Positions 991 through 22,814 of a stretch of 31,695 bases of DNA are shown here, piece by piece. The notes beneath the pieces were generated by a model that saw only the letters and a program-made list of their open reading frames with translations, was not told where the DNA came from and did no database searches. The stretch's first letter is position 1, and every line of letters starts with the position of its first letter. The stretch is from Planctomycetota bacterium. Its GTDB lineage: Bacteria; Planctomycetota; Phycisphaerae; Phycisphaerales; SM1A02. Location: NCBI GenBank assembly GCA_027295365.1, contig JAPULD010000432.1, positions 1-31,695 on the forward strand, written 5' to 3'. Both the position numbers and the translations under genes were made by a program.

Positions 991-2151
991 TCAGGAGATC
1001 ATTCGAGAGCTTATCGCTTTGATGATCTCTTTGGCAACGTACACACGGTTTCTCTCCTGCCCAGTCACCTCCTGCAATACGCTGGCTTCAACGAGACGGT
1101 TGATAGCGCGTTGGGCTGTTGTACTTGTGACTTCCAAGAGCTTTGCCGTTTCGCTCACCGTCAAAGCAGGCGTGGCGAACAACAGTTCGACCAGTGGGAT
1201 TGTGGTCGTCGCGCGATCGCCCGCGAATTGAATGCGATAGCGAGTTTGAAGGTCAATCAGCTTTTGTGCACGAATTGCGCCATCCTGAGCTGCTTCGGTC
1301 GCGGCACGCAGAAAATACAAGATCCACTCCCGCCAACGACTCTCATTGCTCACCGAGAGAAGATGCGCGTAGTACTCGTCTCGCCGCTTTTCTAAAGCAT
1401 CGCTGATATACAGCAGTGGCTCAGGAAGAATTTTATCCATGCAAAGACTTAGCACAATGAGTAACCGACCAATACGACCGTTGCCATCCTCGAACGGATG
1501 AATTGCCTCGAACTGATAGTGGACCAACGCAAGACGTACTAAAGGCGGCAACTCGCTTGGCGCATTAAGATATTCCTCAAGTCGATCAATCGTCTCATTT
1601 AATTCCGCAGGAGGTGGTGGAATATATGTGGCGTCTTCGATTGCGCAGTCGCGAGGACCTATCCAATTCTGAATCCTACGAAACTGTCCTCGTCGGCGTT
1701 CCTGCCCTCGCACCCGTTCCATCAATATCTCATGCAACTCGCGCATCAACCGACCACTGAGTGGCAATGTCGTACTGCGTTCGAGGCCGAAATCAAGCGC
1801 TCGAACGTAATTGTGCACTTCTCGTACATCCGAAAACGGCGATTCCATTGCTTGCGATGCTTCAAATAGATACAGATCATCAACCGATGCTTGAGTGCCT
1901 TCAATTCGACTCGACTGCACCGCCTCCCTTCGTTTGAAAGGCGCAACCAGCAAATGAGGATTTGGAAGCATGAGTCCGATGCTACTTAGGCGACCAATCG
2001 CTCTGTCGGACGCTGACACCATTGATACCATCTCGCTGTCCCACTCAACGACTGGTGGAAGTGGATTCGGTATGAATGCACGGCAAGATCCTGAGCCAGC
2101 TCCAGCACGCACAAATCGTCCGTTTGGTGAGGATTGACTTGTTGATCCCAT
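991..2151 (-). CDS. Fic family protein (class II: N-terminal Fic_N/inhibitory helix, C-terminal winged HTH)
   Basis: Canonical HPFEDGNGRIGR motif; (S/T)xxxEG inhibitory motif SSRIEGT upstream; C-terminal TVSETAKLLEVTSTTAQRAINRL. Start moved to ATG 2151 because the longer N-terminus runs through an AT-rich promoter-like region. Confidence 0.93.
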   Translation of the reverse strand: MGSTSQSSPNGRFVRAGAGSGSCRAFIPNPLPPVVEWDSEMVSMVSASDRAIGRLSSIGLMLPNPHLLVAPFKRREAVQSSRIEGTQASVDDLYLFEASQAMESPFSDVREVHNYVRALDFGLERSTTLPLSGRLMRELHEILMERVRGQERRRGQFRRIQNWIGPRDCAIEDATYIPPPPAELNETIDRLEEYLNAPSELPPLVRLALVHYQFEAIHPFEDGNGRIGRLLIVLSLCMDKILPEPLLYISDALEKRRDEYYAHLLSVSNESRWREWILYFLRAATEAAQDGAIRAQKLIDLQTRYRIQFAGDRATTTIPLVELLFATPALTVSETAKLLEVTSTTAQRAINRLVEASVLQEVTGQERNRVYVAKEIIKAISSRMIS

Positions 2152-2159
2152 GAGCGTCT

Positions 2160-2225
2160 CGTTATTCCACTTTGTGGTGCTTACTGGTTTTCTAATTCTA
2201 CTTATAGCTAAAAATTGGAATAACG
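2160..2225. repeat. 13/14-bp inverted repeat upstream of fic
   Basis: CGTTATTCCA-c-TTT (2160-2173) and AAA-t-TGGAATAACG (2212-2225), 38-nt spacer. Confidence 0.75.
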
Positions 2226-2228
2226 CAA
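2201..2228 (-). promoter_or_regulatory. Putative sigma70-type promoter for fic
   Basis: Minus strand TTGCGT-16 nt-TATAAG in an AT-rich stretch about 50 nt upstream of ATG 2151. Confidence 0.35.
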
Positions 2229-2333
2229 GCAAAACCCAAACAAATCCCTACATTTTTTGTACTAATACATTGTGGGCACACCGGAAGGACCCATAATCGA
2301 TCTTTCAATTCTTCAACGACAACCCATTTCGAC

Positions 2334-5126
2334 CTAAAAATCACCCGTCGGATTGAAGACGATTCTGGTCTGCTCCGCGTCGAACCCATGCTCATCAAAC
2401 AGCAGAAGTTCATTGGGTGAACCGTGCTTCAGCCATGACTCGGGCAGGTAGAGCATCGTCTGGGGGCCAACCGCCTTGCCTTGACCACATGCCGTGAAAT
2501 ATCGGCCCAGGTTGTGGCCATTGACATAGGCCTGACCCTTGCTCAGCCCGATCGTGTCCAGCCAGACCGGCATCGACCCGTCGTGACTCTTGGGCAGATC
2601 GAAACGCGTCTTCCACCAGCACGGCGCGCCCTTCAACTTCTTCACGTCAGCCTTCTCAAGCGCTTCGTAGGACGTCGGCATGGGCGGCTCCCACTTGGCG
2701 AACGACCACGTGGCCCCATCGGACAGCCCCTCGACGCATTCATAGATCGTCGTATGGTCCTTGATGTCCTTGAGCGGATTCTCCTGACCATGATCGGGTG
2801 CGAAGCGCAGGACGTTCTTGCCTCGCTTGAAGGCTTCGGTCATCTCCTGGCTCACCACGATCCGGGCAAAGGTCGCCCCGGTCGCCCCGGCGTAATACGC
2901 GATGGGAATATCGTTGAGCACGAACGAGCCGCTGCACAACGCGCCGTTGACGTCGATGAGGATGGACGTCTTTTTCAGATGGGTGAACGACCATTCCGCC
3001 TGCTGCATATCGCTGATGATGCCTTGGGCCGATCCCGAGATGAAGCCACGCAAGACAAACGGATCGACGGGCGAAGCTTCGACGGTTTTGGGTTTCGCTC
3101 CACTGATCGCCTTGACCTCATAGAGATGCCCGAACAGGCCCTTGGATCGACCAATGTCATTGCCATCGGCGAAGCGTCCCAGATTGTCGGCCAGGATCAC
3201 CAACGTATTCTCGCCCTTGGCAAGTTTGAGCTCGAACGGATCATTGCAAGCGCCGGGCCCGACGCCAAACACATGATCCAATGCACCATCGTTGAAGAGG
3301 TGCAGCCGATCGCCAGACTGGGGCAGATGGCACAGACGCTTCCGCGAGGAGTCGGATTTCAATGTGATGCGATACCAGCCATAGCCGGTCGATGCTCCAC
3401 ATTCCGAAAGCGTTTCAGGGCCGCTGAGCGAGGCAAATCGGGGGGATTGTCCCGAGTATTGCAACTGGGTTGAGGAAGCGGTCCAATCCGAGAGCTTGAT
3501 GGCTCTTGATTTGACGGCCCCCGACGACTTTCCCTTCGTATCGCTCTTGATGGAATCGACCTTTGCCTCAGAGGCGATCCGCCAGGCCTTGGTTGCGCCT
3601 TCGGGAAGAATCGGCTCGCCATCCGTGTCGAAGCCCTCGATGCCAACGTAGACATGCTCATCGTCGTGATACGTCTGGTCGATCTGATCCTGGTTCAGGA
3701 TGACCAGGGTGATTCCCTTGTGATCGATGACCAGCGGCTTGCTGCCACTGGGAACCGTCGCCTCGATCGGGCTTTCGTTGATGGAAAGCAAGGCGGGAGT
3801 TTTTTCGGGCCCGAACAACACGAGGATCGATCGATACACGATCGCCCAAGGGCAAAGATTGACGTAATCCAGCTTGGCCATGCCTCGCAAATCAACGTCG
3901 AAGACGAACCACGCCACGGGTTGATTGCCCAGATACACCTTCAACTTCAGGCCATTGTCGAGCAGCAGGGTGGTGTTCTTGACCTTGCCTCCGCCGAACA
4001 CGAAGACGGCTCGACCGTTCGAGCCCCGTTGCGGAACGATGGCGACGTTCGATGAACTCGCACGGTTCGTGGAGGAATCGTCGCTTTCGATCAATCCCGG
4101 GTCGAGCACGATCGGGTGGAAGTCGGGATTCAATTCCGAGAAGACGTGGCTGAAGTGATTGGCGAAGGTCACTAATCGCTTGGCCACGAGATATTTTTCG
4201 CTACGACCACCCGCCTCGGTCAACGGTGCGCCGTTGGCCGCGCTTGTGGTGACGAAGCCATCTGGCCTCCCCGACATGCGCCCTCCCAGGAAATCGAAAT
4301 TCGTCCCGGCGTGGAAGGGGGAAACGATGAACTGCGCCCCGGCCGCAAGAACCTCGCAAAGCCTTTCCAGGAAACGCCCCGGCGTCTTCTCGTCTTTTCC
4401 CGAATCACCCCAGGCGATCTCATGACCCACCGCCAAAGTGCTGACCAGTCGCGGCGCCTCGGGCTGAATTGCCCTCAGCTGCCTCAGATTAACCAGCAGA
4501 TCGTCCCACCCTCGCCAAGTTTCGATGGATCCGGCCGGCTCAGGCCATAGGTCGTTGGCGGTCAGAATGGGAATATTGAAACCACTCTCACGGATATACC
4601 GCCCCAGTTCCCGGTGGTACTTGTCCAGTTGGTCGGGATTCGAACAGCTCCAGCCATGTTCGGCCTGGACGAGGATTATCGGACCACCATCGGGGGCGGC
4701 CATGCCCTCCAACTCACCGACCAGTTTGCGCGTGTATCGACTGAATTGACCCAGGAAGTCAGGATCGGCTTCGCGAAGTTTCACTTCGGGTTGCACCATC
4801 AGCCAGCCCGGAATGCCAGAGCCGTCAAAACCAGCACCCACCGCTGGCCCCATTCTCAGGATGACTTTCATGTCCGCCTCGGCACAAAGCTCGACGAATC
4901 GTCGAATTTCAGCGCGACCCGTAAATTCAAAACGCCCTCGGCGTGGCTCATGGATCATCCAGGGACATGCGGTTTCGATGGTATTGAACCCGGCCTGCTT
5001 CGCCGCGGCGATATGATTGGCCCAGACTGATGGATCCATGCGGCAATACTGCATGGAGGCCCCAAGGACCCAGAAAGGTCGACCATCGAGAAGAAAACAC
5101 TGTTCGTTGTAGCTTACGGTTGGCAT
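2334..5126 (-). CDS. GH35 beta-galactosidase-like protein with degenerate active site (probable pseudoenzyme), ~930 aa, no signal peptide
   Basis: GH35 scaffold motifs AGFNTIET..W..HEP, GGPIILVQ, FHAGTNF and C-terminal KGQAYVNGHNLGRY..GPQ..LYLP..WL; but ENEY->EHGW, CAEW->GAGF, nucleophile EF->TL, TSYDYDAP->TSAANGAP. Confidence 0.88.
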   Translation of the reverse strand: MPTVSYNEQCFLLDGRPFWVLGASMQYCRMDPSVWANHIAAAKQAGFNTIETACPWMIHEPRRGRFEFTGRAEIRRFVELCAEADMKVILRMGPAVGAGFDGSGIPGWLMVQPEVKLREADPDFLGQFSRYTRKLVGELEGMAAPDGGPIILVQAEHGWSCSNPDQLDKYHRELGRYIRESGFNIPILTANDLWPEPAGSIETWRGWDDLLVNLRQLRAIQPEAPRLVSTLAVGHEIAWGDSGKDEKTPGRFLERLCEVLAAGAQFIVSPFHAGTNFDFLGGRMSGRPDGFVTTSAANGAPLTEAGGRSEKYLVAKRLVTFANHFSHVFSELNPDFHPIVLDPGLIESDDSSTNRASSSNVAIVPQRGSNGRAVFVFGGGKVKNTTLLLDNGLKLKVYLGNQPVAWFVFDVDLRGMAKLDYVNLCPWAIVYRSILVLFGPEKTPALLSINESPIEATVPSGSKPLVIDHKGITLVILNQDQIDQTYHDDEHVYVGIEGFDTDGEPILPEGATKAWRIASEAKVDSIKSDTKGKSSGAVKSRAIKLSDWTASSTQLQYSGQSPRFASLSGPETLSECGASTGYGWYRITLKSDSSRKRLCHLPQSGDRLHLFNDGALDHVFGVGPGACNDPFELKLAKGENTLVILADNLGRFADGNDIGRSKGLFGHLYEVKAISGAKPKTVEASPVDPFVLRGFISGSAQGIISDMQQAEWSFTHLKKTSILIDVNGALCSGSFVLNDIPIAYYAGATGATFARIVVSQEMTEAFKRGKNVLRFAPDHGQENPLKDIKDHTTIYECVEGLSDGATWSFAKWEPPMPTSYEALEKADVKKLKGAPCWWKTRFDLPKSHDGSMPVWLDTIGLSKGQAYVNGHNLGRYFTACGQGKAVGPQTMLYLPESWLKHGSPNELLLFDEHGFDAEQTRIVFNPTGDF

Positions 5127-5282
5127 ATACTGGAATCCTGACCCCAGAAGATTGAGCACTTGGTCACATTTCTACGATTAATCGCCCTCCAGTTCCATGG
5201 TTGGGCAACCTGGATGGGCGGACATCATACCAGCCTGTGCGATTCAAATCCGGGATATCTCCACCTCATCGAGGTCATCATC

Positions 5283-7103
5283 ATGCGAACCGAATTTCCG
5301 TCGATTGATCCATGTCCCGGCAAACTCGTCGTAGTAGGCCTTCTTTTGCTGATTCAGACCGGCTGCTCTTCGAGCTTCGAGGAAATCGACCAGCATGTCG
5401 TCGCGATGATGAAGGAGACCAACAACGATATCGGGGGTGATCTCTTCACCCCGATCATGACGGACTGGGATCTCGACGAGGCCGAACGGGCCACCATTCT
5501 GGAATACGATCCCAATGCCGAATTCATCCCCACGGTGAATCCCGACGCGGTGGCGTTGAAATTCGTGCCCTCCCCCGAGGAGGATGCCGAGAACGTCATC
5601 GCCAGACTGGAGCGGTACAACAATATCTCCGAGGATGCACATCACCTGGACCTGATTGAGAGCCTTGCCTATTCGATCAAGCACAGCCGGGAGTATCGTT
5701 TCGCGGAGGAGGAATTCGTCCTCGCCAGCCTGCGATTGCTGATCGAACAACATCGCTGGGGACCTCGATTCTTCGATGAGGTTTCCGCCACCATCGATGG
5801 CAATGGCAATGACGGGTTTTACGACACCTCGTTCCAACTGGTCAACGAGTTTCGCGTCACCCAGCGACTGCCCTATGGGGGCACCGTCAGCGCTCGGGCC
5901 TTGTCCCGGGCCACGGAAGAACTCCATGGCATGGTCTTCGATGGGGACACCAACAGCACCGACATCATTCTCTCCGCCGACATCCCGCTCCTCAGGGGGG
6001 CCGGCAACGTCGCGCGCGAAGATCTGATCCAGAATGAACGGAACATGATTTACGCGGCACGCAGCTTTGAGAATTTTCGCCGCGAATTCCTGGTCGATAT
6101 CTCCCGGGACTTCCTGAACCTGGTCTTCCAGAATCGCAGCATCAACAACAGCCAACGCCGGGTTGAGAGCAGTGAAAGAGTCGAAAACCGGCAACGTGCC
6201 TTGTATGAATCAGGTCGAATTGACCGCTTTGACGCCTCGCTGGCGGAAAACAACACCGTCAACGCACGCGACAGCCTGAACCGCAGCCAGGAAAGCTACC
6301 GATTGTCTGTTGACCAGTTCAAGGTCCGGATCGGCATGCCCATTGATCAGGATGTGATCATCGATGAATCGAATCTGGGATTGCAAGCCCCACTCGTTTC
6401 GATCAACGACGCCGTCCGGATCGCCATGGCCCTTCGATTGGATTTGCAGAATCAAAGAGATCAGCTTGGCGACGCAAAAAGGCAGGTTGACAATGCCCGC
6501 AACGACTTGCTGCCTGACCTTGATTTTGATGCCTCGGTCACCTTTCCGACCGACCCGGATCGGGACAATGGAGACTTTGATTTCTCACCTGATGACATGG
6601 ACTTTCGGACGGGGATTACGTTTGGCCTGCCTCTCGATCGGGAGATCGAGAGGATCAACGTTCGGCAAGCCCAGATCAACTTGGAGCGATCCCGTCGCCG
6701 ATATGAGCAATTCCGAGATGGTGTGGCGACGGAAGTCAGGGCCGCGGTACGAAGCATTGATGCTGCTCTTTTCAGTCTGGATATCCAGGAACGTGGCGTC
6801 GAAATCGCCAATCAGGGCATCGCGAGTATTCTGGCCGCCCCGGATCGGGCAGATGCCCGAGCGATGGTGGATGCGATCGATGATCAGATCGAGGCCAAGG
6901 ATGGTCGCGATCGAGCGAAACGCGACCTCGAAATCGCCATTCTTTTCTACTTACGTGATTCGGGACAGCTTCGTGTAGACGACAATGGGACGATTCTGCC
7001 TCTCCAGGGCATGGTGATCACTCCGAAAGATCCCACCGAGGGTGACGATGAGGCTGATAACCCCATTCTGGACCTGGCTCCACTCGATGAAAGCGGTTCT
7101 TGA
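5283..7103 (+). CDS. TolC-family outer membrane efflux protein (lipoprotein)
   Basis: Signal-like LVVVGLLLLIQTG-C lipobox; two OEP-type repeats (..ADIPLLRGAG.., ARNDLLPDLDFDASV..GLPLDREIER); start set at ATG 5283. Confidence 0.88.
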   Translation: MRTEFPSIDPCPGKLVVVGLLLLIQTGCSSSFEEIDQHVVAMMKETNNDIGGDLFTPIMTDWDLDEAERATILEYDPNAEFIPTVNPDAVALKFVPSPEEDAENVIARLERYNNISEDAHHLDLIESLAYSIKHSREYRFAEEEFVLASLRLLIEQHRWGPRFFDEVSATIDGNGNDGFYDTSFQLVNEFRVTQRLPYGGTVSARALSRATEELHGMVFDGDTNSTDIILSADIPLLRGAGNVAREDLIQNERNMIYAARSFENFRREFLVDISRDFLNLVFQNRSINNSQRRVESSERVENRQRALYESGRIDRFDASLAENNTVNARDSLNRSQESYRLSVDQFKVRIGMPIDQDVIIDESNLGLQAPLVSINDAVRIAMALRLDLQNQRDQLGDAKRQVDNARNDLLPDLDFDASVTFPTDPDRDNGDFDFSPDDMDFRTGITFGLPLDREIERINVRQAQINLERSRRRYEQFRDGVATEVRAAVRSIDAALFSLDIQERGVEIANQGIASILAAPDRADARAMVDAIDDQIEAKDGRDRAKRDLEIAILFYLRDSGQLRVDDNGTILPLQGMVITPKDPTEGDDEADNPILDLAPLDESGS

Positions 7104-7257
7104 CCGGATGTCGCCTATTATTCCGGACGATCTTGGAGATTCAGGTCATCCCGGAACAAGGATTCTGGTTCAATAAACAATGGCGAAGACTTGGCCAGAG
7201 CTCAAATGCAGATAGAGGACGTCGGACGGACTCATTAATAAGCAGACCCAGAGAGGC

Positions 7258-9024
7258 ATGGCGACCAGTGCCATGCTCATTGTCATCGTGCTGATCGGGC
7301 TCGCCGCCAGCAGCCTGTGGTTCTTCAAGCGCGGTGCCGCCATCGACTCTTCGATCATGGCGATGGATACCTTCACCGTTCAAAAGGGAAGTTTTGACGT
7401 CATCATCCCGACCACAGGTGAACTGGCCGCGATCCGCCAGATCGAGATCCGCAACGAGATGGAGCAAAGGGCCACGATCACGTATGTCGTCGATGAAGGG
7501 ATTCGAATCAAGGCGGGCGAGGTGCTTCTGAAATTCAACGACGAGACCATCCTCAACAACATCAAGGACGCCGAGGATTCGCTGGACAGCGCGATCAATC
7601 GACTCGAAAACACCAAGGCCACGCTGGAGATTCGCAAGAAGACCCGCGAGTCGGAACTGGCCAAGGCTGACCTGGAAATCACCCTGACCGGTCTGGCCCT
7701 GCAATCCTGGAAGGAAGGCGAGGTCGTCGAGACGCGACAGGACCTGGCGCTGGAGTTGAAGACCGCCCAGATGGAATTCGATCGACTTCAGGATCGGTTC
7801 GTCGCGTCGGAGCGACTCTACATTCAGGAATTCATCAGCCTCGACGAGTACAAGCAGGATGAAATCTCGTTGGTCCGCGCCGAGACGAGACTCAAGCAGG
7901 CGAACCTCGACATCGAGATCTACGAGAAGTACGAATACAAACAACAATTCGAGAAGAACAAGTCTGATCGTGTTCAGGCCGTCGAAGAACGTGATCGGAC
8001 GCAGCAACGCCAAGACGCTGAAGTGCGAAGCGTCGAGAGCGATGTGAAGGGCGCCGAGCGACAAGTCCAAAGCCGCCGGGAAAGACTGGACAAGTGGACG
8101 CATCAGCTCGGATTGTGCGAAATCATCGCGCCGTCGGATGGCTTGGTCGTCTACGCCTCAAGTCTCTCGACCGGGGGGATGGGCCGGCGCGACGAAGATC
8201 CACCCATGATCGGCACCGAAGTGCAATCCATGCGGACCATCATGATTCTGCCCGATACAAGTCAGATGATTGCCGAGGTCAAAGTCAACGAAGCCCTCAG
8301 CGGCATGATCAAGCGAGGTCAGCTCACGACCATCGTGACCGACGCCTTCCCCGACACCGTCTTTGCCGGTGAGATCTACAGCGTGGGGGTGCTGGCCGAA
8401 AGTGGCGGCTGGCGAGATCCGACCCGACGCGATTACACCATCAAGATTGCGATCGACCCAAGCGAGTTGGCCTCCCGACTCAAGCCCTCCATGCGCTGCC
8501 GGGCCGACATCAACGTCGGGAACGTCCGGGACGCCATGTACGTCCCGATTCAGGCGATCCATCGGCAAGGTCCGGTCGCTTATGTCTGGGTTCCCGATGG
8601 ACGAGGCTATTCACAACGTCAAGTCAAGACGGGTCGAGCCTCGGAATTGTACGTCGAGCTTCTGGAAGGGGTGGAGCTGGGCGATCACGTGCTCCTGCGT
8701 TCCCCCGAGCCAAAGGAAATCGAAGCGATGCTGGACATTCCGGCGGCAGGATCCATCGCGAGTCTGGAGCTTTCCTCGGAACAGACCACGGAACATTCGG
8801 CTGGTCACTCCAATCAAGACCAGACCAATCAACCCCAACCTTCCCGGCGAGGTCAATCGGGACGCGGACGTCCGTCCGCCGAACAGATTGAGAAGATGAT
8901 GGAAAACATGACCCCCGAGCAGAAAAAGGCCATGGAGGACCGCATCAAGAAGCGGCAAAACGGGGCGGGTGGTCATTCTGAAGGCGAATCCCATCAACAA
9001 CCCGAAGGCGATGGGACTCAATAA
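7258..9024 (+). CDS. Efflux periplasmic adaptor subunit (HlyD/MacA-like), paralogue 1
   Basis: N-terminal TM; lipoyl halves VVDEGIRIKAGEVL / IIAPSDGLVV flanking a long coiled coil; beta-barrel VKVNEA; MP domain VPIQAI; low-complexity tail. Confidence 0.92.
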   Translation: MATSAMLIVIVLIGLAASSLWFFKRGAAIDSSIMAMDTFTVQKGSFDVIIPTTGELAAIRQIEIRNEMEQRATITYVVDEGIRIKAGEVLLKFNDETILNNIKDAEDSLDSAINRLENTKATLEIRKKTRESELAKADLEITLTGLALQSWKEGEVVETRQDLALELKTAQMEFDRLQDRFVASERLYIQEFISLDEYKQDEISLVRAETRLKQANLDIEIYEKYEYKQQFEKNKSDRVQAVEERDRTQQRQDAEVRSVESDVKGAERQVQSRRERLDKWTHQLGLCEIIAPSDGLVVYASSLSTGGMGRRDEDPPMIGTEVQSMRTIMILPDTSQMIAEVKVNEALSGMIKRGQLTTIVTDAFPDTVFAGEIYSVGVLAESGGWRDPTRRDYTIKIAIDPSELASRLKPSMRCRADINVGNVRDAMYVPIQAIHRQGPVAYVWVPDGRGYSQRQVKTGRASELYVELLEGVELGDHVLLRSPEPKEIEAMLDIPAAGSIASLELSSEQTTEHSAGHSNQDQTNQPQPSRRGQSGRGRPSAEQIEKMMENMTPEQKKAMEDRIKKRQNGAGGHSEGESHQQPEGDGTQ

Positions 9025-9059
9025 ATGGATTCAATCGGCTCCAATTCAAGTAGGTTTGC

Positions 9060-9095
9060 CGAGCGTCTCCATCCAGGGTGACGCTCGTTCTTTTT
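9060..9095 (+). terminator. Putative intrinsic terminator between adaptor 1 and adaptor 2
   Basis: CGAGCGTC (9060-9067) / GACGCTCG (9080-9087) stem followed by TTCTTTTT, 35 nt after the stop. Confidence 0.6.
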
Positions 9096-9237
9096 GGCTT
9101 CGGTCAGAAACATGGTGTAAACTTTTGGGTTCTTGAGACATGTTTTTCTGAGGATCGGTTTTTCAGACATCAGGACAGACCGAGACCCTCCCCACGTTTT
9201 CTGCGATAGATGATTGCCCGAACTTTCAGGTGAAACA

Positions 9238-10953
9238 ATGACACGACGAAGCAGTTCACGACGCGGCCTGTCCATGATGAGCGTTGCTCTCTTTGTGCTC
9301 TTCCTGGCCACCATCGCCATGGGGGGTTGGTGGATGACTCGACAAGCGAATATTGCCGACAGCGTAGACTCGATCGACCTGTTCGAGACTCGCCAAGGTG
9401 GATTCGACATCATCATTCCCGCGTCGGGCGAGCTCGCTGCGATCAGTGAAACTGAAATTCGAAACGAGATGGAGCAAAGGGCGACGATCATCCAGATCGT
9501 CGACGAAGGCGTCGAGGTCAAGCAAGGTGATTTGCTCATCCAGTTCAACGACGAAGGCGTGCGCACGAAAATCGACGATGCCGAGGATGCGCGGGACAAC
9601 GCGATCAACCAACTCGAAAATGCGAAGGCCAGCCTGGAGATCCGGAAGAAGACCCGCGAGTCGGACTTGGCGAAAGCCGATCTTGACATCACGTTGACCG
9701 AGCTGGCTTTGCTATCGTGGGAGGAAGGCCAAGTCGTCGAGATGCGACAGAATCTTGATCTCGAGCAAAAGACGACCCTTATGGAATACGATCGTTTGAA
9801 GGACCGCTTCAAGGCCTCGAAGCGTCTGTACGAGCAGGAGTTCATCAGCCTCGACGAGTTCAAGCAGGATGAAATTGCCCTCGTGAGGGCCGAGACACGG
9901 CTCAAGCAGGCCCAGCTCGACATCGAAATCTACGAGAAATACGAGTACAAGCAGCAGCGTGAGCAGAAGGAATCGGATCGACAACAGGCCATTGACGAGC
10001 GGGATCGCATCCAGCAACGCAACGATGCCAATGTCAGCAGCGCCGAGAGCGATGTCCGCAGCGCCGATCGGCTTCTCAACAGTCGCAAAGAACGACTCCA
10101 GAAGTGGCAGAACCAACTCAAGCTCTGCACCATCATCGCGCCCACATCGGGTCTGGTCATCTACACCTCAAGCCTCAACACCGGAGGTCATGGCCGGAGC
10201 AATGATGCCCCCCCCATGGTGGGCACCGATGTCTCATCCAAGAAAACCATCATGATCCTCCCCGATACGTCGGAGATGATTGCCGAGGTGAAGGTGAACG
10301 AAGCCCTCAGTGGTCAGATCATGAATGGCCAGATGGCCACCATCGTCTCCGATGCCAAGCCCGATCTCATGCTGAGAGGCAGGGTCTTCAGCGTTGGCGT
10401 GCTGGCGGAAACGGGAGGCTGGCGCGATCCCCACCGACGCGATTACACCGTAAAGATCCTGATCGAGAACTACGATCGCAGCCAGGGCCTCAAGCCCTCC
10501 ATGCGATGCCGGGCCGACATCAATGTCGGTCGAGTGGATGATGCCACGTACGTGCCGATTCAGGCGGTGCATCGCCAGGGGCCGGCCGCGTTCGTCTGGA
10601 TTCCCGATGGCCGAGGCTATTCCCAGAACAAGATAGACATTGGTCAGGCTTCAGAACTCTATGTCGAAGTGCTGAATGGCCTGGACGCCGGCCAAATTGT
10701 CCTGATGAGGGAGCCAAACCCCAAGGATATCGTGGCGATGCTGGACATTCCCGCGGGTCCCGTGAACCCATTGGCTCCGCCTTCCACATTCGGTCCTGAT
10801 GAAAACCGAGGCGATGCATCGCGTGGTGGTACTGATGCTTCATCTGCCCAACCGCCAGCCCATCAAGGCAGGGGCTCGAATGGTGGCCACGATCGCTCCG
10901 GTGACAAAAATCGACGCTCAGGGAATGATTCAAGCACTGAATCGGGCCAGTAA
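9238..10953 (+). CDS. Efflux periplasmic adaptor subunit, paralogue 2
   Basis: Same architecture; aligns without gaps to paralogue 1 at an offset of 2010 nt through the hairpin tip; start set at ATG 9238 (AGGTG upstream). Confidence 0.92.
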   Translation: MTRRSSSRRGLSMMSVALFVLFLATIAMGGWWMTRQANIADSVDSIDLFETRQGGFDIIIPASGELAAISETEIRNEMEQRATIIQIVDEGVEVKQGDLLIQFNDEGVRTKIDDAEDARDNAINQLENAKASLEIRKKTRESDLAKADLDITLTELALLSWEEGQVVEMRQNLDLEQKTTLMEYDRLKDRFKASKRLYEQEFISLDEFKQDEIALVRAETRLKQAQLDIEIYEKYEYKQQREQKESDRQQAIDERDRIQQRNDANVSSAESDVRSADRLLNSRKERLQKWQNQLKLCTIIAPTSGLVIYTSSLNTGGHGRSNDAPPMVGTDVSSKKTIMILPDTSEMIAEVKVNEALSGQIMNGQMATIVSDAKPDLMLRGRVFSVGVLAETGGWRDPHRRDYTVKILIENYDRSQGLKPSMRCRADINVGRVDDATYVPIQAVHRQGPAAFVWIPDGRGYSQNKIDIGQASELYVEVLNGLDAGQIVLMREPNPKDIVAMLDIPAGPVNPLAPPSTFGPDENRGDASRGGTDASSAQPPAHQGRGSNGGHDRSGDKNRRSGNDSSTESGQ

Positions 10954-11137
10954 GTACTTACCGATACAGCTTCGAGGAACCAGCGACTTTTTCAATTCAC
11001 CAAATCTTCGACGAAGTCCTTCTTTTTGCCGAGATAAAATGGCGGTTAATGCGTTAATACCAAATACAAGAGGTTGAACGTCCAACTTCGTCATATCCGA
11101 GGGGTACAAAGGAGAGACCCTCATTGAGGACAGCGCC

Positions 11138-12871
11138 ATGCAGGGATCACACTCGCCAAAGCATCACAAGTTTCGAACGATTCACCCTCGGCGCGGAATC
11201 TCCTCCCTGAGCGTAGTCGTGGCGATCCTGATGTTGGGGGCAATCGCCATCGGGGCGCGGTACTTGCCGAGTTCTTCAAATCAAACACCCGACCAAGGCG
11301 ATATGGATCTCTTCGAGGTCGTCCGGGGCAATTTTGAAATCATCATTCCCACCACGGGTGAATTGGTCGCCAAGAACCAGACTGAGATCAAGAATCAACT
11401 CGAATCAAGAGCCGTCATCACCGAGATCGTCGAGGAGGGAACGATTGTCAGCAAGGGCGACATCCTGATTCGATTCAACGATGAAGAGATTCAAAACCGA
11501 CTCGACGATGCCGAGGAATCCGTGAACAGCTCCAGAAATGATTTGGAGAATGTCCAGGCGGAACTGGAAATTCGCAAGAAGACCCGGGATTCGGAAAACG
11601 AGAAAGCCAAACTGAAGATTGAATTGGCGGAATTGGATCTCAAGGGTTGGGAGAAGGGGGAGGTGGTCACCCGCCGTCAGGATCTTGCTCTCGCGATGGA
11701 AACCGCGGAACTGAATTACAACCGTCTTCAGGAACGCTTTGAAGCTTCCCAAAGGTTATACGAGCAGGAATTCATAAGCCTTGATGAATTCAAGCAGGAC
11801 CAGATTTCATTGGTTGAAGCGAAGGCCCGACATAAACAAGCCAAGCTCGACATTGAAGTCTACGAGAAGTACGAATTCCAGAAGCAGCAGAAGCAGAAGG
11901 TCTCCAATCTCGAACAGTCCAAGAAGGAATACGAACGCGTCAAGGCCAGACAGGATGCGCAAGTCCGTCAATCCGAAAGTGACGTCGTCTCCCGCCAGCG
12001 CCGACTCGACAGCAAATTGGATCGCTTGGAACGGCACAAGAAACAACTCATCGCCTGCTCCATCGAGGCCCCCCAGGATGGGCTTGTCGTCTACGCGTCA
12101 AGCCTTGAAGGATTCAGGTGGATGCGGGACCGGGGTATGAACATCCAGGTCGGGACCGAGATGTGGCACAACCAGCTCATCATGATCCTGCCCGACACGT
12201 CGCAGATGATCGCCGAGGTCAAGATCAACGAGGCGCTGAGCGGTCAGATTCAGCCGGGGCAGACCGCGACCATCACGTGCGATGCGTCCCCCGACGATGT
12301 GCTCACTGGGGTCGTCGAAAGCATCGGCGTCTTGGCCGAGAATGGCGGCTGGCGCGATCCCAATCGTCGCGATTACACCGTTCGGATCAGGCTAGATGGC
12401 GACAACACCCTCGATTTGAAACCATCCATGCGTTGTCAGGCCGACATCATGATCGACCGGATCGATCAGGCCTTGCACATCCCCCTTCAGGCGGTGCATC
12501 GCCAGGGAGCCGCGACCTTCGTGTATGTCCCGGATGGTTCGGGTTTCTCGCAACGCAAGGTCGCATTCAACCGGGCTTCGGAACTCTACATCGAGATCAG
12601 CGAGGGCCTCGACGCGGGCGATCGCGTCCTACTCCGCGAGCCTACCCCTGAGGAGATCGTCGCGAAGATCGATCCCGCGAAATGCAAACCGGTGGAAACC
12701 AACGCCCCAGACGATCGCCTGGCCAAGGGTCCCCAGCAAGGCAGCCCCGAATCGAACGCGCTGATTCAACAACAGCAGCCCGAGTCGAACCTGATCACGA
12801 GCGACGATTCCGATTCCGAATCTGAGGGCGATGAGGATGAAGGGGACATCACGGGTCCGACGACCGAGTGA
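11138..12871 (+). CDS. Efflux periplasmic adaptor subunit, paralogue 3
   Basis: Same architecture; offset 1930 nt from paralogue 2; GAGGA 6 nt upstream; acidic tail. Confidence 0.92.
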   Translation: MQGSHSPKHHKFRTIHPRRGISSLSVVVAILMLGAIAIGARYLPSSSNQTPDQGDMDLFEVVRGNFEIIIPTTGELVAKNQTEIKNQLESRAVITEIVEEGTIVSKGDILIRFNDEEIQNRLDDAEESVNSSRNDLENVQAELEIRKKTRDSENEKAKLKIELAELDLKGWEKGEVVTRRQDLALAMETAELNYNRLQERFEASQRLYEQEFISLDEFKQDQISLVEAKARHKQAKLDIEVYEKYEFQKQQKQKVSNLEQSKKEYERVKARQDAQVRQSESDVVSRQRRLDSKLDRLERHKKQLIACSIEAPQDGLVVYASSLEGFRWMRDRGMNIQVGTEMWHNQLIMILPDTSQMIAEVKINEALSGQIQPGQTATITCDASPDDVLTGVVESIGVLAENGGWRDPNRRDYTVRIRLDGDNTLDLKPSMRCQADIMIDRIDQALHIPLQAVHRQGAATFVYVPDGSGFSQRKVAFNRASELYIEISEGLDAGDRVLLREPTPEEIVAKIDPAKCKPVETNAPDDRLAKGPQQGSPESNALIQQQQPESNLITSDDSDSESEGDEDEGDITGPTTE

Positions 12872-14270
12872 CGATCTCTTCGGGGAGCGATTTCAATTCA
12901 GTGGTCGTGATCGGGCGAATATCGATCTCGACCGGGACGGGTGGATCAATCTCCAGCTCCGTGGTCGCGTTCAATTCCTTGAGACGGCGGGTGCTGGTGA
13001 GCAGATTGCGTTCCAGCGAACCCACGGCGGCGTTGTAGGACTTGTTGGCCTTGCCCAGACTGTCGCCCACCTTCTCGAAGTGAGTCACGAACACCCGCAG
13101 GCGACTGTACAGTTCCTTGCCGACTTCGGTGATCTGTTTCGCGTTCGCCGCCGCCGCGTCCTGATGCCATCCATACGCAATGGTTTTCAGAAGCGCCACC
13201 AGGATCGTCGGGGACGTGACGATCACGTGATCCTGCATGGCCTTCGACTGCAAGTCAGGCGCCACTTGCATGGCGGCATACAATCCCGCCTCCAGGGGCA
13301 TGAACATGACGACGAAGTCGGGTGTGTGTTCGAACTGACTCCAATACTTCTTGCTCGCTAGTCTGGTGACGTGGTCCTGGACCTGCTTCGCGTGTGCCTT
13401 TAATCGTTCCGCATGGTCAGACTCTGGTTCCAAGGCATCAAGATACGCATCCATCGCAACCTTCGAATCGACAACGATGACGCCACCCCCCGGCACCCTG
13501 ACCACTAAATCGGGGCGATCTCGCGTCGTGGGATCGTCGGTCTGTGGCTGTTCCTCGAAATCGCAATGCTCCGTCATCCCCGCCATCTCGACGACGTTCC
13601 GCAACTGCATCTCGCCCCAACGGCCTCGCTGTTCGGGACGACGCAGTGCGCTGACGAGCTTGCCGGTCTGGGTGTCGAGTTTCTCATGGGAGGCCGCGAT
13701 CATCTTGATCTGCTCTTCGAGGCCCTTGTAGGCCACATCGCGTTTCTTCTCGATTTCCGTCACCGCAAGGTTCTGCTTCTCCAGCAATTCCTTGATGGGC
13801 TTGACGAGATTGTCGATCGCCAGCTGACGCTTCTCGACATCCCCTTTGGCCGAGGTCATCTGCGTCTCAAGCACCTTCTTGGCCAGCTCGATGAACTGCT
13901 CGTTGTTCGCGGCCAGGGCCTTGGCCCCCAACGCGGTGAACGTGTCGGCCAGTTCCTTCTTGGCATCACCCAGGAGCTGCCTTTGCTCCTCGAATTGCTT
14001 TTCCTTCACCACCAGCCGCTCGGTCAGCGTCGCCAGTTCCCGCTGGGCCACTTCGCGTCGCTCGTTGGCCTCCAGGGTCTGTTGCCGCCCCTCGCGCAAG
14101 GCTTCGTCGTCGTCCCGCGCCTGTTGCTCAAGCAGTTCCGCCCTGGCCTTGAGGTTTGCCATGTCCCCCTGAGCCTCTCCTCGACGGCTCATCATCCATA
14201 AAGTGGCCACCGCACCCCCCAGCCCGGCGCCGATCCCCAACCCGATCAATGCATCAATCCAATCGATCAT
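12849..14270 (-). CDS. rmuC: DNA recombination protein RmuC
   Basis: N-terminal TM, long coiled coil, RGRWGEMQL and nuclease-like RPDLVV..IVVDSK, FVVMFMP; 23-bp convergent overlap with adaptor 3. Confidence 0.95.
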   Translation of the reverse strand: MIDWIDALIGLGIGAGLGGAVATLWMMSRRGEAQGDMANLKARAELLEQQARDDDEALREGRQQTLEANERREVAQRELATLTERLVVKEKQFEEQRQLLGDAKKELADTFTALGAKALAANNEQFIELAKKVLETQMTSAKGDVEKRQLAIDNLVKPIKELLEKQNLAVTEIEKKRDVAYKGLEEQIKMIAASHEKLDTQTGKLVSALRRPEQRGRWGEMQLRNVVEMAGMTEHCDFEEQPQTDDPTTRDRPDLVVRVPGGGVIVVDSKVAMDAYLDALEPESDHAERLKAHAKQVQDHVTRLASKKYWSQFEHTPDFVVMFMPLEAGLYAAMQVAPDLQSKAMQDHVIVTSPTILVALLKTIAYGWHQDAAAANAKQITEVGKELYSRLRVFVTHFEKVGDSLGKANKSYNAAVGSLERNLLTSTRRLKELNATTELEIDPPVPVEIDIRPITTTELKSLPEEIVTRSSDP

Positions 14271-16967: not shown

Positions 16968-17007
16968 CCACCTACCACCCGTCACCTGTAACCCGCCACC
17001 TCCTCCC
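16968..17007 (+). repeat. Degenerate heptamer tandem repeat (consensus YCACCYG) x5
   Basis: CCACCTA CCACCCG TCACCTG TAACCCG CCACCTC CTCCC. Confidence 0.6.
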
Positions 17008-17169
17008 TTTTCTGCTACAATTTCAACCTGAAGGCACCTTCCTTTCGAGGCAAGGCCGGGGCCTTCTGGCGGATTATGACAATTATAGTGTCTGTTCGAT
17101 GCACACTTTGCATTGAATAGCCGTCAAAACCCCAAGCAACACTGGCTTACACACATGCAAGAAAATGAT

Positions 17170-18789
17170 ATGAATGTGACATCAGACACATTAAAAGAAT
17201 TCATCTGTAAAGACATTTATAAGTCTGCAATTTTCAAAGGCCAATGGGGAATTGGTAAAACATTTTACTGGCACAAATTCGTTAGGGATAATATGGATGT
17301 ATTAAAAGATAGCTTTCAAGCCTATTCATATGTTTCCGTTTTTGGTGCTTCTACTATTTCAGATATCAAAACTAGTATTTTCAATAACTATAAACCCACT
17401 GATAACAAATCTCGATATCGCCATATCGATAAGCTAAAACCACACATTAAAATTCTAAAATCTTTAAATTTGCCTTACTTAGATTCTACAGACTTTATAT
17501 CTGACTACCTTGAAAACAATTTGTTTAAAAATATGTTGATATGTTTTGATGACCTAGAAAGAAAAGAAGAGGATATTTCCATGTCTTCATTACTGGGATT
17601 AATAACACACCTCAAAGAGGAAAAAGGTTGTAAAATCATACTCATACATAATGATGAAGGATTAGATGAAATTAATCTAAATAAATTCAATGAGTATCGA
17701 GACAAGGTTTTTGATCTCGAACTTTCGTATATGCCTTCAATTGATTCAAATCTGTCAATCATCTGGCCAAAAGGGATTGACCATAGTACTCGTGAAGTTT
17801 TTCAATTACTTAATTTGAATAACATCCGAATCATGCAACGCGTAAAGTGGGCCCAAGAATACTTTTATGAATTCATCAGTAATAATTACACCCACCTCAA
17901 TAATGCTTTTATGCTAAAATGCACTAAGATGGCAATAATTTACCATGCTTATGGAAAGAAATACAAACTAGCAGAATTAACAAAAGAAAATACACTAGCT
18001 CGACTGCTCTCTACCTATAAAAATGGCCCCACCGATGAGAACGAAGATGGATCACTTGATATCCTGAAAATCTTAGAATATAGGGCAGAAGACCAAGATA
18101 TCATCATTGCAAACTATCTAACCAATGGATACGTCAATTTTCTCGATTACAAAGAGCTGCTAGACGCAGCAGAAACTGCATATCAAAAAGGTAACGTTGA
18201 GGGGAAATATTGGGATACATGGAAAAAATATAGTGACAATTTCGCCATAAAGCAGGATGAATTTATTTCACAACTTCAAGAATTCATAAAGACACATGCT
18301 AAAGACCTATCACTCTATCATGTTTCTGAATCAATTAAATTTCTTTCTGATATGTCACCAGAGATTGACTTAGATAAATTACTTGATGATTCAATTGAAA
18401 AATATGTGTCTGAAAATGAAGAGATCCGTGAACGAGATCTCACGCATCCAAATATGCCTAGAGAATTGATCGATCGTATTTTGGAGAAGGCTGGTGCCAA
18501 GGGAAAAAAATACACGCTTTTAGAAATTTTCAAATCCCTTGCTGGCAGCAATAGTTGGACCCCAGAAGAAGTAAATCGCCTAGGCCATTTTGAAGCTAGT
18601 GATTTTGTTAACTGGCTGACAAATGAAAACGATGGCCAAGTAATCCAATTAGTTAGAAATTTCAAGAATCGATTTCATGGCGACAATGAAATTGAAATAT
18701 CAGTCCTTGAAAAACTAAACCACGCTCTTGAAATAATGAAAAATAGAAGTGCCTTAGACAAAGACAGAGTTGAAAAACTAATTAATTAA
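17170..18789 (+). CDS. KAP-family P-loop NTPase, AT-rich, solo gene
   Basis: Walker A GQWGIGKT, Walker B LICFDDLER, KAP-like NKFNEYRDKVFD and NIRIMQR; GC about one third versus ~60% in flanks; start uncertain (17113/17155/17170). Confidence 0.85.
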   Translation: MNVTSDTLKEFICKDIYKSAIFKGQWGIGKTFYWHKFVRDNMDVLKDSFQAYSYVSVFGASTISDIKTSIFNNYKPTDNKSRYRHIDKLKPHIKILKSLNLPYLDSTDFISDYLENNLFKNMLICFDDLERKEEDISMSSLLGLITHLKEEKGCKIILIHNDEGLDEINLNKFNEYRDKVFDLELSYMPSIDSNLSIIWPKGIDHSTREVFQLLNLNNIRIMQRVKWAQEYFYEFISNNYTHLNNAFMLKCTKMAIIYHAYGKKYKLAELTKENTLARLLSTYKNGPTDENEDGSLDILKILEYRAEDQDIIIANYLTNGYVNFLDYKELLDAAETAYQKGNVEGKYWDTWKKYSDNFAIKQDEFISQLQEFIKTHAKDLSLYHVSESIKFLSDMSPEIDLDKLLDDSIEKYVSENEEIRERDLTHPNMPRELIDRILEKAGAKGKKYTLLEIFKSLAGSNSWTPEEVNRLGHFEASDFVNWLTNENDGQVIQLVRNFKNRFHGDNEIEISVLEKLNHALEIMKNRSALDKDRVEKLIN

Positions 18790-18934
18790 CCCACTCGAAA
18801 TTCAAGATCTATTACTATTTATCTCAAGCCTTTCTAGATTAGACAATTGGAAATATTTGCATTCAATAATGTAAATGGCGAGGCGATGCACCCTAGAGCT
18901 TTTTCCATGCTCTTGAGTGATCGTCCCCTCCCCC

Positions 18935-19279
18935 TTAGCGCCCGGCTCGGTATTGGTCCAGCTTCGACACCGCTTCCGTCTCCCCCTTCTCCGTCAGCGC
19001 GGCGGTCAGCTTGAAATACATCGTCGTCCGGTAGCCTTCCCAATCGAATCCCTTGCGGCTGCGCTTCAGCGTGCGCTCGAAGATCGCCTCGTGCTCACGT
19101 TCGATCGTCTCCATCAGCAGTTCGCGATGGTCCTGAAACACTTGGGAGCCTTCCAACTCGTTGAGGAGTTTGATCCTCGTCTCCTCGCTGTCGGCAATGC
19201 CATACGCCAAGGTGTTCAGGAAAATGCCCAGGCCTATAAAAGCCATCACAACAATAAACAGAATGATCGCGCGTCTCAT
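18935..19279 (-). CDS. Small hypothetical protein with N-terminal TM/signal and helical soluble domain (114 aa)
   Basis: AAGGAG 6 nt upstream of ATG 19279; MRRAIILFIVVMAFIGLGIFL; host-like codon usage. Confidence 0.75.
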   Translation of the reverse strand: MRRAIILFIVVMAFIGLGIFLNTLAYGIADSEETRIKLLNELEGSQVFQDHRELLMETIEREHEAIFERTLKRSRKGFDWEGYRTTMYFKLTAALTEKGETEAVSKLDQYRAGR

Positions 19280-19324
19280 GAGGTGCTCCTTATCATGGTT
19301 CCCCACGCCTTGAAAGCTCCAGAG

Positions 19325-19370
19325 AATCCGGGGGTTCCCGGAGTTCCGGGGGTGGATTCCGGGGGCGGGG
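19325..19370 (+). repeat. Second G-rich WTTCCGGGGG repeat cluster, G-quadruplex-like
   Basis: AATCCGGGGG TTCCCGGAG TTCCGGGGG TGGATTCCGGGGG CGGGG; four tracts of at least 4 G. Confidence 0.75.
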
Positions 19371-19447
19371 AGAAAGCTTGTTTCCCGCGGCAGAAATGTG
19401 TTCGCCTATGCGACTGATTCAAATTTAAGGTATGCCGACAAAGTTGT

Positions 19448-22476: not shown

Positions 22477-22814
22477 AGGCCCACCCCTTTCTTTCGGATG
22501 CTTCTCTGAACCGGAGAGGCACACTGACTGAGGAACACCCGGAACGATGCTTTAAACATACACACAACCGGGTCGAGAAATAGAAGTAATTGACTTTTTT
22601 TGCCGGGAGAAGTGGGTGTTCACCACACTGAGCAATGGGTTGATCGACCTTTTTCCGAACCGGGCTGACCCGATGGCCTCAGACTGCCCATCGCTCCAAT
22701 TAGTCGGCAAGGTCAGCAGATAATAACGTTGACGACGCAAAGCAAAGAACGCGGAGGCGATGGATCAGCGCATCGACCGGAAGACCTCCACGAACCATAT
22801 GTCATTCGTACTTC

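Follow-up and report, generated by a model that had tools for sequence, protein, structure and literature searches.

A gene for a TolC-like outer-membrane channel, followed on the same strand by three full-length paralogous adaptor genes, was found at 5283-12871 of the window, the 31,695-nucleotide stretch of DNA analysed here (Table 1). The window comes from contig C371 of a metagenome-assembled genome (MAG; 3.84 Mb, 553 contigs, 80% complete), referred to below as G000, and homolog names place the source in Planctomycetota, Phycisphaerales, from marine samples. The channel and the adaptors A1, A2 and A3 are four open reading frames (ORFs), and a convergent ORF (12849-14270) that overlaps A3 by 23 bases encodes RmuC (308.9 bits). 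No ATP-binding cassette (ABC), resistance-nodulation-division (RND) or major facilitator superfamily (MFS) efflux gene was found among the window ORFs of at least 150 amino acids. The layout given in the original prediction, a tolC gene with three full-length adaptors, a convergent rmuC and no ABC, RND or MFS gene in the cluster, is confirmed by the ORFs, by the Pfam OEP match of the channel, by HlyD, RND_mfp and MacA matches of the adaptors and by the RmuC score.

Table 1. Features of the channel-adaptor locus, in positions of the window.
Feature	Position	Strand	Basis
TolC-like outer-membrane factor, probably a lipoprotein	5283..7103	+	Pfam OEP, signal, AlphaFold2 model
Adaptor A1 (alpha1 paralog), 588 amino acids, MacA-like, membrane-anchored	7258..9024	+	HlyD/RND_mfp/MacA matches
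Hairpin-tip motif of A1 (residues 176-203)	7783..7866	+	Pattern location
Adaptor A2 (alpha2 paralog), 579 amino acids	9214..10953	+	HlyD/RND_mfp/MacA matches, tree
Hairpin-tip motif of A2 (residues 194-221)	9793..9876	+	Pattern location
Adaptor A3 (beta paralog), 577 amino acids	11138..12871	+	AlphaFold2 model, profile and fold matches
Hairpin-tip motif of A3 (residues 196-223)	11723..11806	+	Pattern location, AlphaFold2 model

The channel matches Pfam OEP in two stretches (87.9 bits against a cut-off of 22), while its scores with TIGR01844 and TIGR01845 are far under cut-off. Thus, it is a divergent member of the outer-membrane factor (OMF) family. Its frame also permits a TTG start at 5160; the Met start at 5283 gives a lipoprotein-like signal, a hydrophobic stretch followed by a lipobox-like ...IQTGC. 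An AlphaFold2 model (predicted local distance difference test score, pLDDT, 84) has the canonical OMF strand and helix pattern, with two OEP repeats that each combine beta strands and long helices, and a sequence search against solved structures gave weak but specific matches to OMFs. The long helices of the model (246-309 and 454-518) are of an ordinary 64-65 residues, and the channel itself is therefore not elongated.

The adaptors are 60% (A1/A2), 47% (A1/A3) and ~52% (A2/A3) identical to each other, and none of the three copies carries stops or frameshifts. Their matches to HlyD, RND_mfp and MacA models score close to or below the curated cut-offs. Only A3 passes Pfam cut-offs (HlyD_D23, 36 against 30; HlyD_3, 35.9 against 22.2), with A1 and A2 falling below; all three score 87-94 bits with TIGR01730 (cut-off 94.9) and match TIGR01843 and TIGR02971 weakly. 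The AlphaFold2 model of A3 (pLDDT 83) has the four-domain build of a periplasmic adaptor plus a membrane anchor: a transmembrane helix (23-42), a plain two-helix hairpin of 190 residues (116-305, with helices 116-209 and 215-305), and lipoyl, beta-barrel and membrane-proximal domains, ending in a disordered C-terminal tail. The fold search with A3 returned 77 PDB adaptor matches at E<=0.001, EmrA among them. Among solved structures, the profile search ranks MacA first (E 5.6e-22), and the top Foldseek matches of the model are MacA chains in MacAB-TolC assemblies. The modelled transmembrane anchor and membrane-proximal domain would fit adaptors of the ABC-coupled MacA type better than those of the EmrA type.

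In the MacA profile alignment, residue 135 at the tip of MacA is aligned with residue 250 of the query, so that each helix of the hairpin is about 35 residues longer than in MacA. The hairpin length is constant: a comparison of the window adaptors with those of L131, L026, L130, L132, L025 and L021, nine orthologs from four families of the order, found 190 residues without indels down to 26% identity. An invariant hairpin of this length, together with channel helices of ordinary length, fits a fixed molecular ruler across the periplasm.

The start of A1 differs from those of the other two copies. Its frame is open from 7216, with the first ATG, GTG or TTG only at 7258, and an in-frame QRG upstream of the start is aligned with the RRG that precedes the transmembrane helix in A2 and A3. 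The short cytoplasmic N-terminal tail of A2 and A3 is not present in A1 as annotated. Thus, A1 has either lost this tail or uses an unusual start codon.

The hairpin tips of the triplet had been described as nearly identical, with the L and S of the RLS docking motif kept and R replaced by Ala, and the tip strings prove correct and lie at the tip of the model. RxxxLxxxxxxS is the adaptor tip motif for docking to the channel (PMC3391258). In A3, L207 and S214 take the places of L and S at the spacing of this motif, and the R slot at position 203 is Ala. The full motif is thus absent, and only its L and S part is present. Across the family, Leu and Ser are invariant (135/135 members), and the Arg slot holds Glu, Ala or Asp, and Arg in none. 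The tip without Arg is a property of the whole adaptor family that extends beyond the window triplet. All ten tip positions conserved in the family are intact in each of A1, A2 and A3. Gene conversion was considered for the likeness of the tips and rejected, as identical tip residues use the same codon at a frequency of 0.41-0.48 (A1/A3 and A2/A3), which equals the background. Thus, it is protein-level selection, rather than gene conversion, that keeps the tips alike.

To place the triplet among its relatives, 41 genomes of the order were searched. The adaptor is found in 39, and is single everywhere except in G000 with three copies and its congener G001 with two. The channel ortholog is single-copy in 35/41 (E<=1e-25), with one copy in G000. 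G001 has a second, partial match to the channel gene at a contig end (C78:2-1012, 58% identity), which could be a second channel copy or reflect a mixture of strains in that MAG. In 79 further Phycisphaerales loci the channel-adaptor pair forms a conserved unit, with the channel called beside the adaptor in 56. Their neighbours comprise GH35, UPRTase, DNA methylase, aldehyde dehydrogenases, RmuC, a flavoprotein and an extracytoplasmic function (ECF) sigma factor; none of the neighbours in these loci is a pump gene. Two adaptors are found in G001 and in three other MAGs (L053, L054 and L055), four between channel and RmuC on a metagenome contig present in three samples (L049), and probably three on another metagenome contig. 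Counting adaptors in orthologous loci, a check put forward with the original prediction, thus gives one to four across Phycisphaerales.

Adaptor trees were inferred with a site-heterogeneous model from 23 and from 51 rows. The alpha group (A1, A2 and their kin) and the beta group (A3 and its kin) are each monophyletic with support of 100/99, and alpha and beta together form one clade in the best tree (95/92 with 23 rows, 75/94 with 51 rows). A1 pairs with the first adaptor of the four-adaptor locus (93/89 and 99/95) and A2 with the second (95/94 and 97/87). The split into alpha1 and alpha2 therefore predates the separation of these lineages. The four-adaptor locus has undergone an additional duplication of beta, and the order of alpha before beta is the same in G001, L049 and L054. 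Of 114 positions with a conservation of at least 93% among single-copy orthologs, A1 retains 104, A2 105 and A3 107 (91-94%). Given the shared splits and the retained conserved sites, the adaptor copies are neither recent nor decaying, and all of them appear to be kept under purifying selection. Most of the positions that distinguish alpha from beta are in the hairpin stalk (162-195 and 249-252), with few in the lipoyl and barrel domains and none at the tip. Charge complementarity between alpha and beta was considered and dropped, since the group-specific charged sites (186/193/195 and 249/252) are at different heights of the hairpin. In the channel, no consistent clade-specific changes were found at the two tips in multi-adaptor lineages.

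A probable transporter was located through deep-branching relatives. In five of them (G027 and G037; G028, G033 and G038), genes for an ABC ATPase and for a MacB-type permease, the latter with MacB_PCD and FtsX domains, come directly after the channel-adaptor pair. In the G037 and G027 operons, where ORF ends were called, neighbouring genes overlap or are only a few bases apart. The adaptors of all five linked operons share the 190-residue hairpin and the tip pattern. When the operon permease was used as query against five genomes of the family (G000, G001, G003, G007 and G019), each gave one strong match, at ~270 bits compared with ~168 for the canonical MacAB copy. The match in G000 is a 442-residue protein (C393:1617-2945), and in the reverse search the operon permease is its sole match at E<=1e-10 in G037, G027 and G028. 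The C393 permease scores 139.5 bits with NCBIfam MacB against 44.3 with lolCE, both under the equivalog cut-offs, and 119.9 bits with PF12704. It has the periplasmic core domain and FtsX-type helices of a MacB-type protein and is not of the LolC/E type. A whole-genome tblastn search of G000 found only this gene and the canonical MacAB copy on C305. The neighbours of the C393 gene are a histidine kinase and a glycosyltransferase-like gene, with no ATPase. By sequence similarity, C317:1010-1726 is probably the ATPase of the exporter, as in each of the five linked genomes it matches the operon ATPase best.

The permease is single-copy in 40/41 genomes. For the channel, the 35 genomes at the strict threshold are joined by the five weakly similar channels of the linked operons, and the two genomes without a channel ortholog are those that lack the adaptor. 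Channel, adaptor and permease co-occur in 39/41 genomes. G013, which is 96% complete, has none of the three orthologs, which suggests that it lost the entire pump. In the multi-adaptor genomes G000, G001, G042 and G043 the permease is likewise single, and only a fragment of it was found in G041. In the closed genome G019, adaptor and permease are ~413 kb apart. Given the linked operons of the relatives and the single unlinked permease ortholog, an ancestral four-gene operon of the MacAB-TolC type has been broken up in this family. The absence of an inner-membrane pump, as originally proposed, thus holds for the locus but not for the organism, where the permease seems to be unlinked rather than missing, and the lack of a pump would concern the gene layout and not the machine.

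Taking these results together, we consider it probable (about 0.68) that the locus encodes the channel and three adaptors of a MacAB-TolC-type exporter that is conserved across Phycisphaerales, with permease and ATPase encoded elsewhere in the genome and the adaptors sharing one pump. In such an exporter, each adaptor would be anchored in the inner membrane by one helix, and its hairpin would reach the channel over ~135-140 Å, as estimated from ~92 residues per helix, docking through the family-specific tip that has L and S of the RLS motif and no R. As in other MacB pumps, the source of the substrate would be the periplasm or the outer leaflet of the inner membrane. The adaptor gene would have gone through successive duplications, an earlier one giving alpha and beta and a later one dividing alpha into alpha1 and alpha2, while channel and permease stayed single.

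MacAB-TolC is the closest known system in mechanism. The likeness comprises an adaptor with transmembrane anchor, hairpin, lipoyl, beta-barrel and membrane-proximal domains, with MacA as best profile and fold match; an ABC ATPase and a MacB_PCD/FtsX permease as partners in the relatives; and the retained L and S of the tip. However, the hairpin is longer than in MacA, the tip Arg is never present, ATPase and permease are separate proteins, and the genes lie at three loci with the adaptor in three copies. TriABC-OpmH of Pseudomonas aeruginosa also has more than one tandem adaptor gene for one pump and is a precedent for a ring of unlike adaptors (PMC8277102; PMC4446572), but it has two adaptors, and its RND transporter TriC is in the same operon, whereas the window family has two to four adaptors and an unlinked transporter of the ABC, MacB type. 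The DevBCA paralogs of Anabaena are MacB-like ABC exporters with DevB-type adaptors and a TolC-like channel, HgdD, that is encoded apart (PMC8277102), and the weak TIGR02971 match of the window adaptors points to a likeness with them. In Anabaena, each adaptor is accompanied by its own ABC genes and it is the channel that is orphaned, whereas in the window the channel is with the adaptors, the ABC genes are orphaned and only the adaptor has multiplied. The channel is also an orphan in the case of E. coli tolC, with the adaptor staying with the pump, so that the layout in the window is the reverse. HlyD and EmrA resemble the window adaptors in their N-terminal transmembrane anchor and very long helical domain. 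HlyD is not known to have a membrane-proximal domain. EmrA has none (PMC4446572), while the window adaptors have one in the model, and the partners of HlyD and EmrA are MFS transporters or ABC transporters of type I secretion systems (T1SS).

All three adaptors most likely share the same pump and channel. Their equal hairpin length, intact tips, tandem genes on one strand and single-copy partners fit such sharing. A mixed ring of the three has, in our estimate, a little less than an even chance and is favoured over alternative homo-hexamers, which seem rather unlikely. Paralogs of a homo-oligomer that are made side by side in one membrane would be expected to co-assemble unless prevented, and this favours the mixed ring. 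Two-adaptor pumps such as TriABC, and fused adaptor dimers, which have been cited in support of a trimer of adaptor dimers (PMC4446572; PMC8277102), point the same way. The hetero-oligomeric adaptor ring raised in the original prediction has thus become the favoured arrangement, given one channel, one permease and two to four retained adaptors with identical hairpin length and intact tip, and is to be read with these odds. More tentatively still, the mixed ring could be obligate, with one MacB dimer and one channel trimer as its partners. Where a genome has two adaptors, such a ring would consist of alpha/beta pairs, and in G000 the three kinds of subunit could fill the three non-equivalent positions of a six-fold ring around the two-fold MacB dimer. 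If this is true, the pump would be the first of the ABC-type tripartite kind whose adaptor ring is hetero-oligomeric, and it would show in nature how a symmetric ring divides into specialised subunits. A non-exhaustive search of the literature turned up no report of three or four paralogous adaptors in a tripartite pump of the ABC type.

An efflux locus that seems to lack a pump can thus be a piece of a dispersed pump, with the partner found only via distant orthologous operons. In Phycisphaerales, nature provides adaptor numbers of one, two, three and four on a machine of the MacAB-TolC type that is single-copy in its other parts, and this series makes hetero-oligomeric rings in ABC-type pumps, and the handling of the 6:3:2 symmetry mismatch, testable. 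The invariant hairpin is also a handle on the width of the periplasm in Planctomycetota. As the source organisms are uncultured, the immediate impact is moderate.

Several other explanations of the locus were weighed. The adaptors might form a cassette in which every paralog links the single channel with an unlinked transporter of its own, such as the ancestral MacB-type permease, an ADOP or another MacB-like protein. Many MacB-family permeases of G000 indeed have no adjoining adaptor, the N-terminal and transmembrane regions near the transporter differ between copies, and ADOP permeases that exceed the curated cut-off are confined, among the 41 genomes, to G000 and G001, the two with more than one adaptor. 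However, G041-G043, three further genomes with two adaptors, are without any ADOP gene at E<=1e-50, G001 has ADOPs yet only two adaptors, and the remaining adaptor-less permeases are also found in single-adaptor genomes such as G019 and G007. The N-terminal and transmembrane region is variable in every adaptor group and not conserved within groups. Orthologs of the C393 permease have not been duplicated, and the other adaptor-dependent pumps of G000 each have their own adaptor (RND types on C9, C266, C324, C346, C520 and C46; ABC types on C305, C455 and C148), three of them, on C9, C266 and C305, with their own adjoining OMF gene; further OMF genes are on C299 and C407. One TolC serving several distant transporters, the other option of the original prediction, thus finds no support, and we regard the cassette as improbable. 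ADOP permeases were accordingly dropped as the reason for the extra adaptors, because the three other two-adaptor genomes are without them. As an observation in its own right, ADOP genes (TIGR03434, ~800 amino acids) are present as at least 13 copies in tandem arrays in G000 (contigs C241, C422, C375, C466, C90, C186 and C493) and at least 10 in G001, with none over cut-off in the 39 other genomes of the order, and the expansion is genus-specific. No adjacent ATPase or adaptor was seen on the array contigs, which are short.

A conduit that is independent of any pump, in which channel and adaptors form a passive duct from periplasm to outside or an envelope tether, would agree with the pair standing alone among housekeeping genes in the ~79 Phycisphaerales loci and with a hairpin length fixed as in a ruler. 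It is very unlikely in view of the orthologs that lie in a four-gene operon with ATPase and permease in five genomes, the single permease ortholog in 40/41 and its loss together with channel and adaptor in G013; moreover, the membrane-proximal and barrel domains, which contact the transporter, are the best conserved parts of the adaptor. There is hardly any chance that the copies are redundant recent duplicates, some of them silent or decaying. Their tandem arrangement and the lost N-terminal tail of A1 could be taken that way, but identities of only 47-60%, intact frames, the 91-94% of family-conserved sites kept per copy and an ortholog of each copy at the same position in other lineages all oppose it. 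Distant orthologous loci do carry the ABC genes and a single adaptor, as had been named as grounds for doubting the three-adaptor system, but the triplet is neither strain-specific nor drifting. A T1SS-like role, in which HlyD-type adaptors export a cytoplasmic protein such as the neighbouring signal-less GH35, is equally hard to credit. The long hairpin with transmembrane anchor is as in HlyD, TIGR01843 matches weakly, and a GH35 gene without signal peptide lies divergently beside the channel in 29 of ~79 related loci. However, neither mark of the HlyD type, an adaptor without membrane-proximal domain and a partner of the ABC_membrane type, was found: the model has the domain, with MacA as best match, and the linked operons carry a MacB-type permease and not an ABC_membrane exporter. 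The ABC_membrane genes of the genome are few and unlinked, and neither the marine clade nor the operon-linked relatives have GH35. Given the MacB-type partner, GH35 is unlikely to be a cytoplasmic cargo. The secondary-SecA/T1SS module of Planctomycetes-Verrucomicrobia-Chlamydiae (PVC) bacteria (PMC4452313) was also considered and is not relevant, as there is no SecA-like gene here.

A number of points weigh against an exporter with three retained adaptors on a single dispersed pump. In the tree of 51 rows, the joint clade of alpha and beta has a support of only 75/94, and a single-adaptor locus, P0025, falls at the base of the alpha clade, so retention is not universal; either beta was lost there or beta is misplaced in the tree by faster change. 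The spacers of 155-190 bases between the genes of the window locus, unlike the overlapping genes of the linked operons, make independent expression possible. No RNA runs with the locus were found, and only DNA metagenome runs contain parts of it. On the side of the transporter, the margins of the C317 ATPase are thin (239-250 against 210-233 bits), and a complex prediction of the permease with residues 20-515 of A3 scored 0.00, which is evidence for neither side. As the assembly of G000 (553 contigs) is 80% complete, it could lack a second copy of the permease or of the ATPase gene. Finally, the search for orphan MacB or ABC permeases that had been recommended as a check turned up, besides the C393 ortholog, MacB-type permeases without adjoining adaptor on C208, C368 and C167 and in the ADOP arrays, and it is possible that one adaptor copy is used by one of these.

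Regulatory elements were sought around the genes. A promoter scan of 4900-13100 gave one promoter-like site against 3.4 expected, and terminator-like sites in the same range are on the opposite strand only. An Rfam search of 4800-13200 gave no match, and no conserved element common to the three spacers was found.

The GH35-like protein of the window (2334-5159, minus strand, 941 amino acids) is encoded divergently from the adjoining channel gene and has no N-terminal signal peptide. At lower positions lies a gene for a Fic-domain protein (991-2232, minus strand) that matches the PADLOC SoFic model with 378 bits as well as Pfam Fic_N and Fic. On the other side of the channel-adaptor locus, a low-GC island (17001-19417; GC 0.34-0.39 compared with ~0.58) encodes a KAP-family P-loop NTPase of 558 amino acids that matches the PADLOC candidate defence family PDC-S49 (85 bits). 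Together with an M36-like peptidase (19594-22524), this island is an insertion relative to the syntenic locus of the congener G001.

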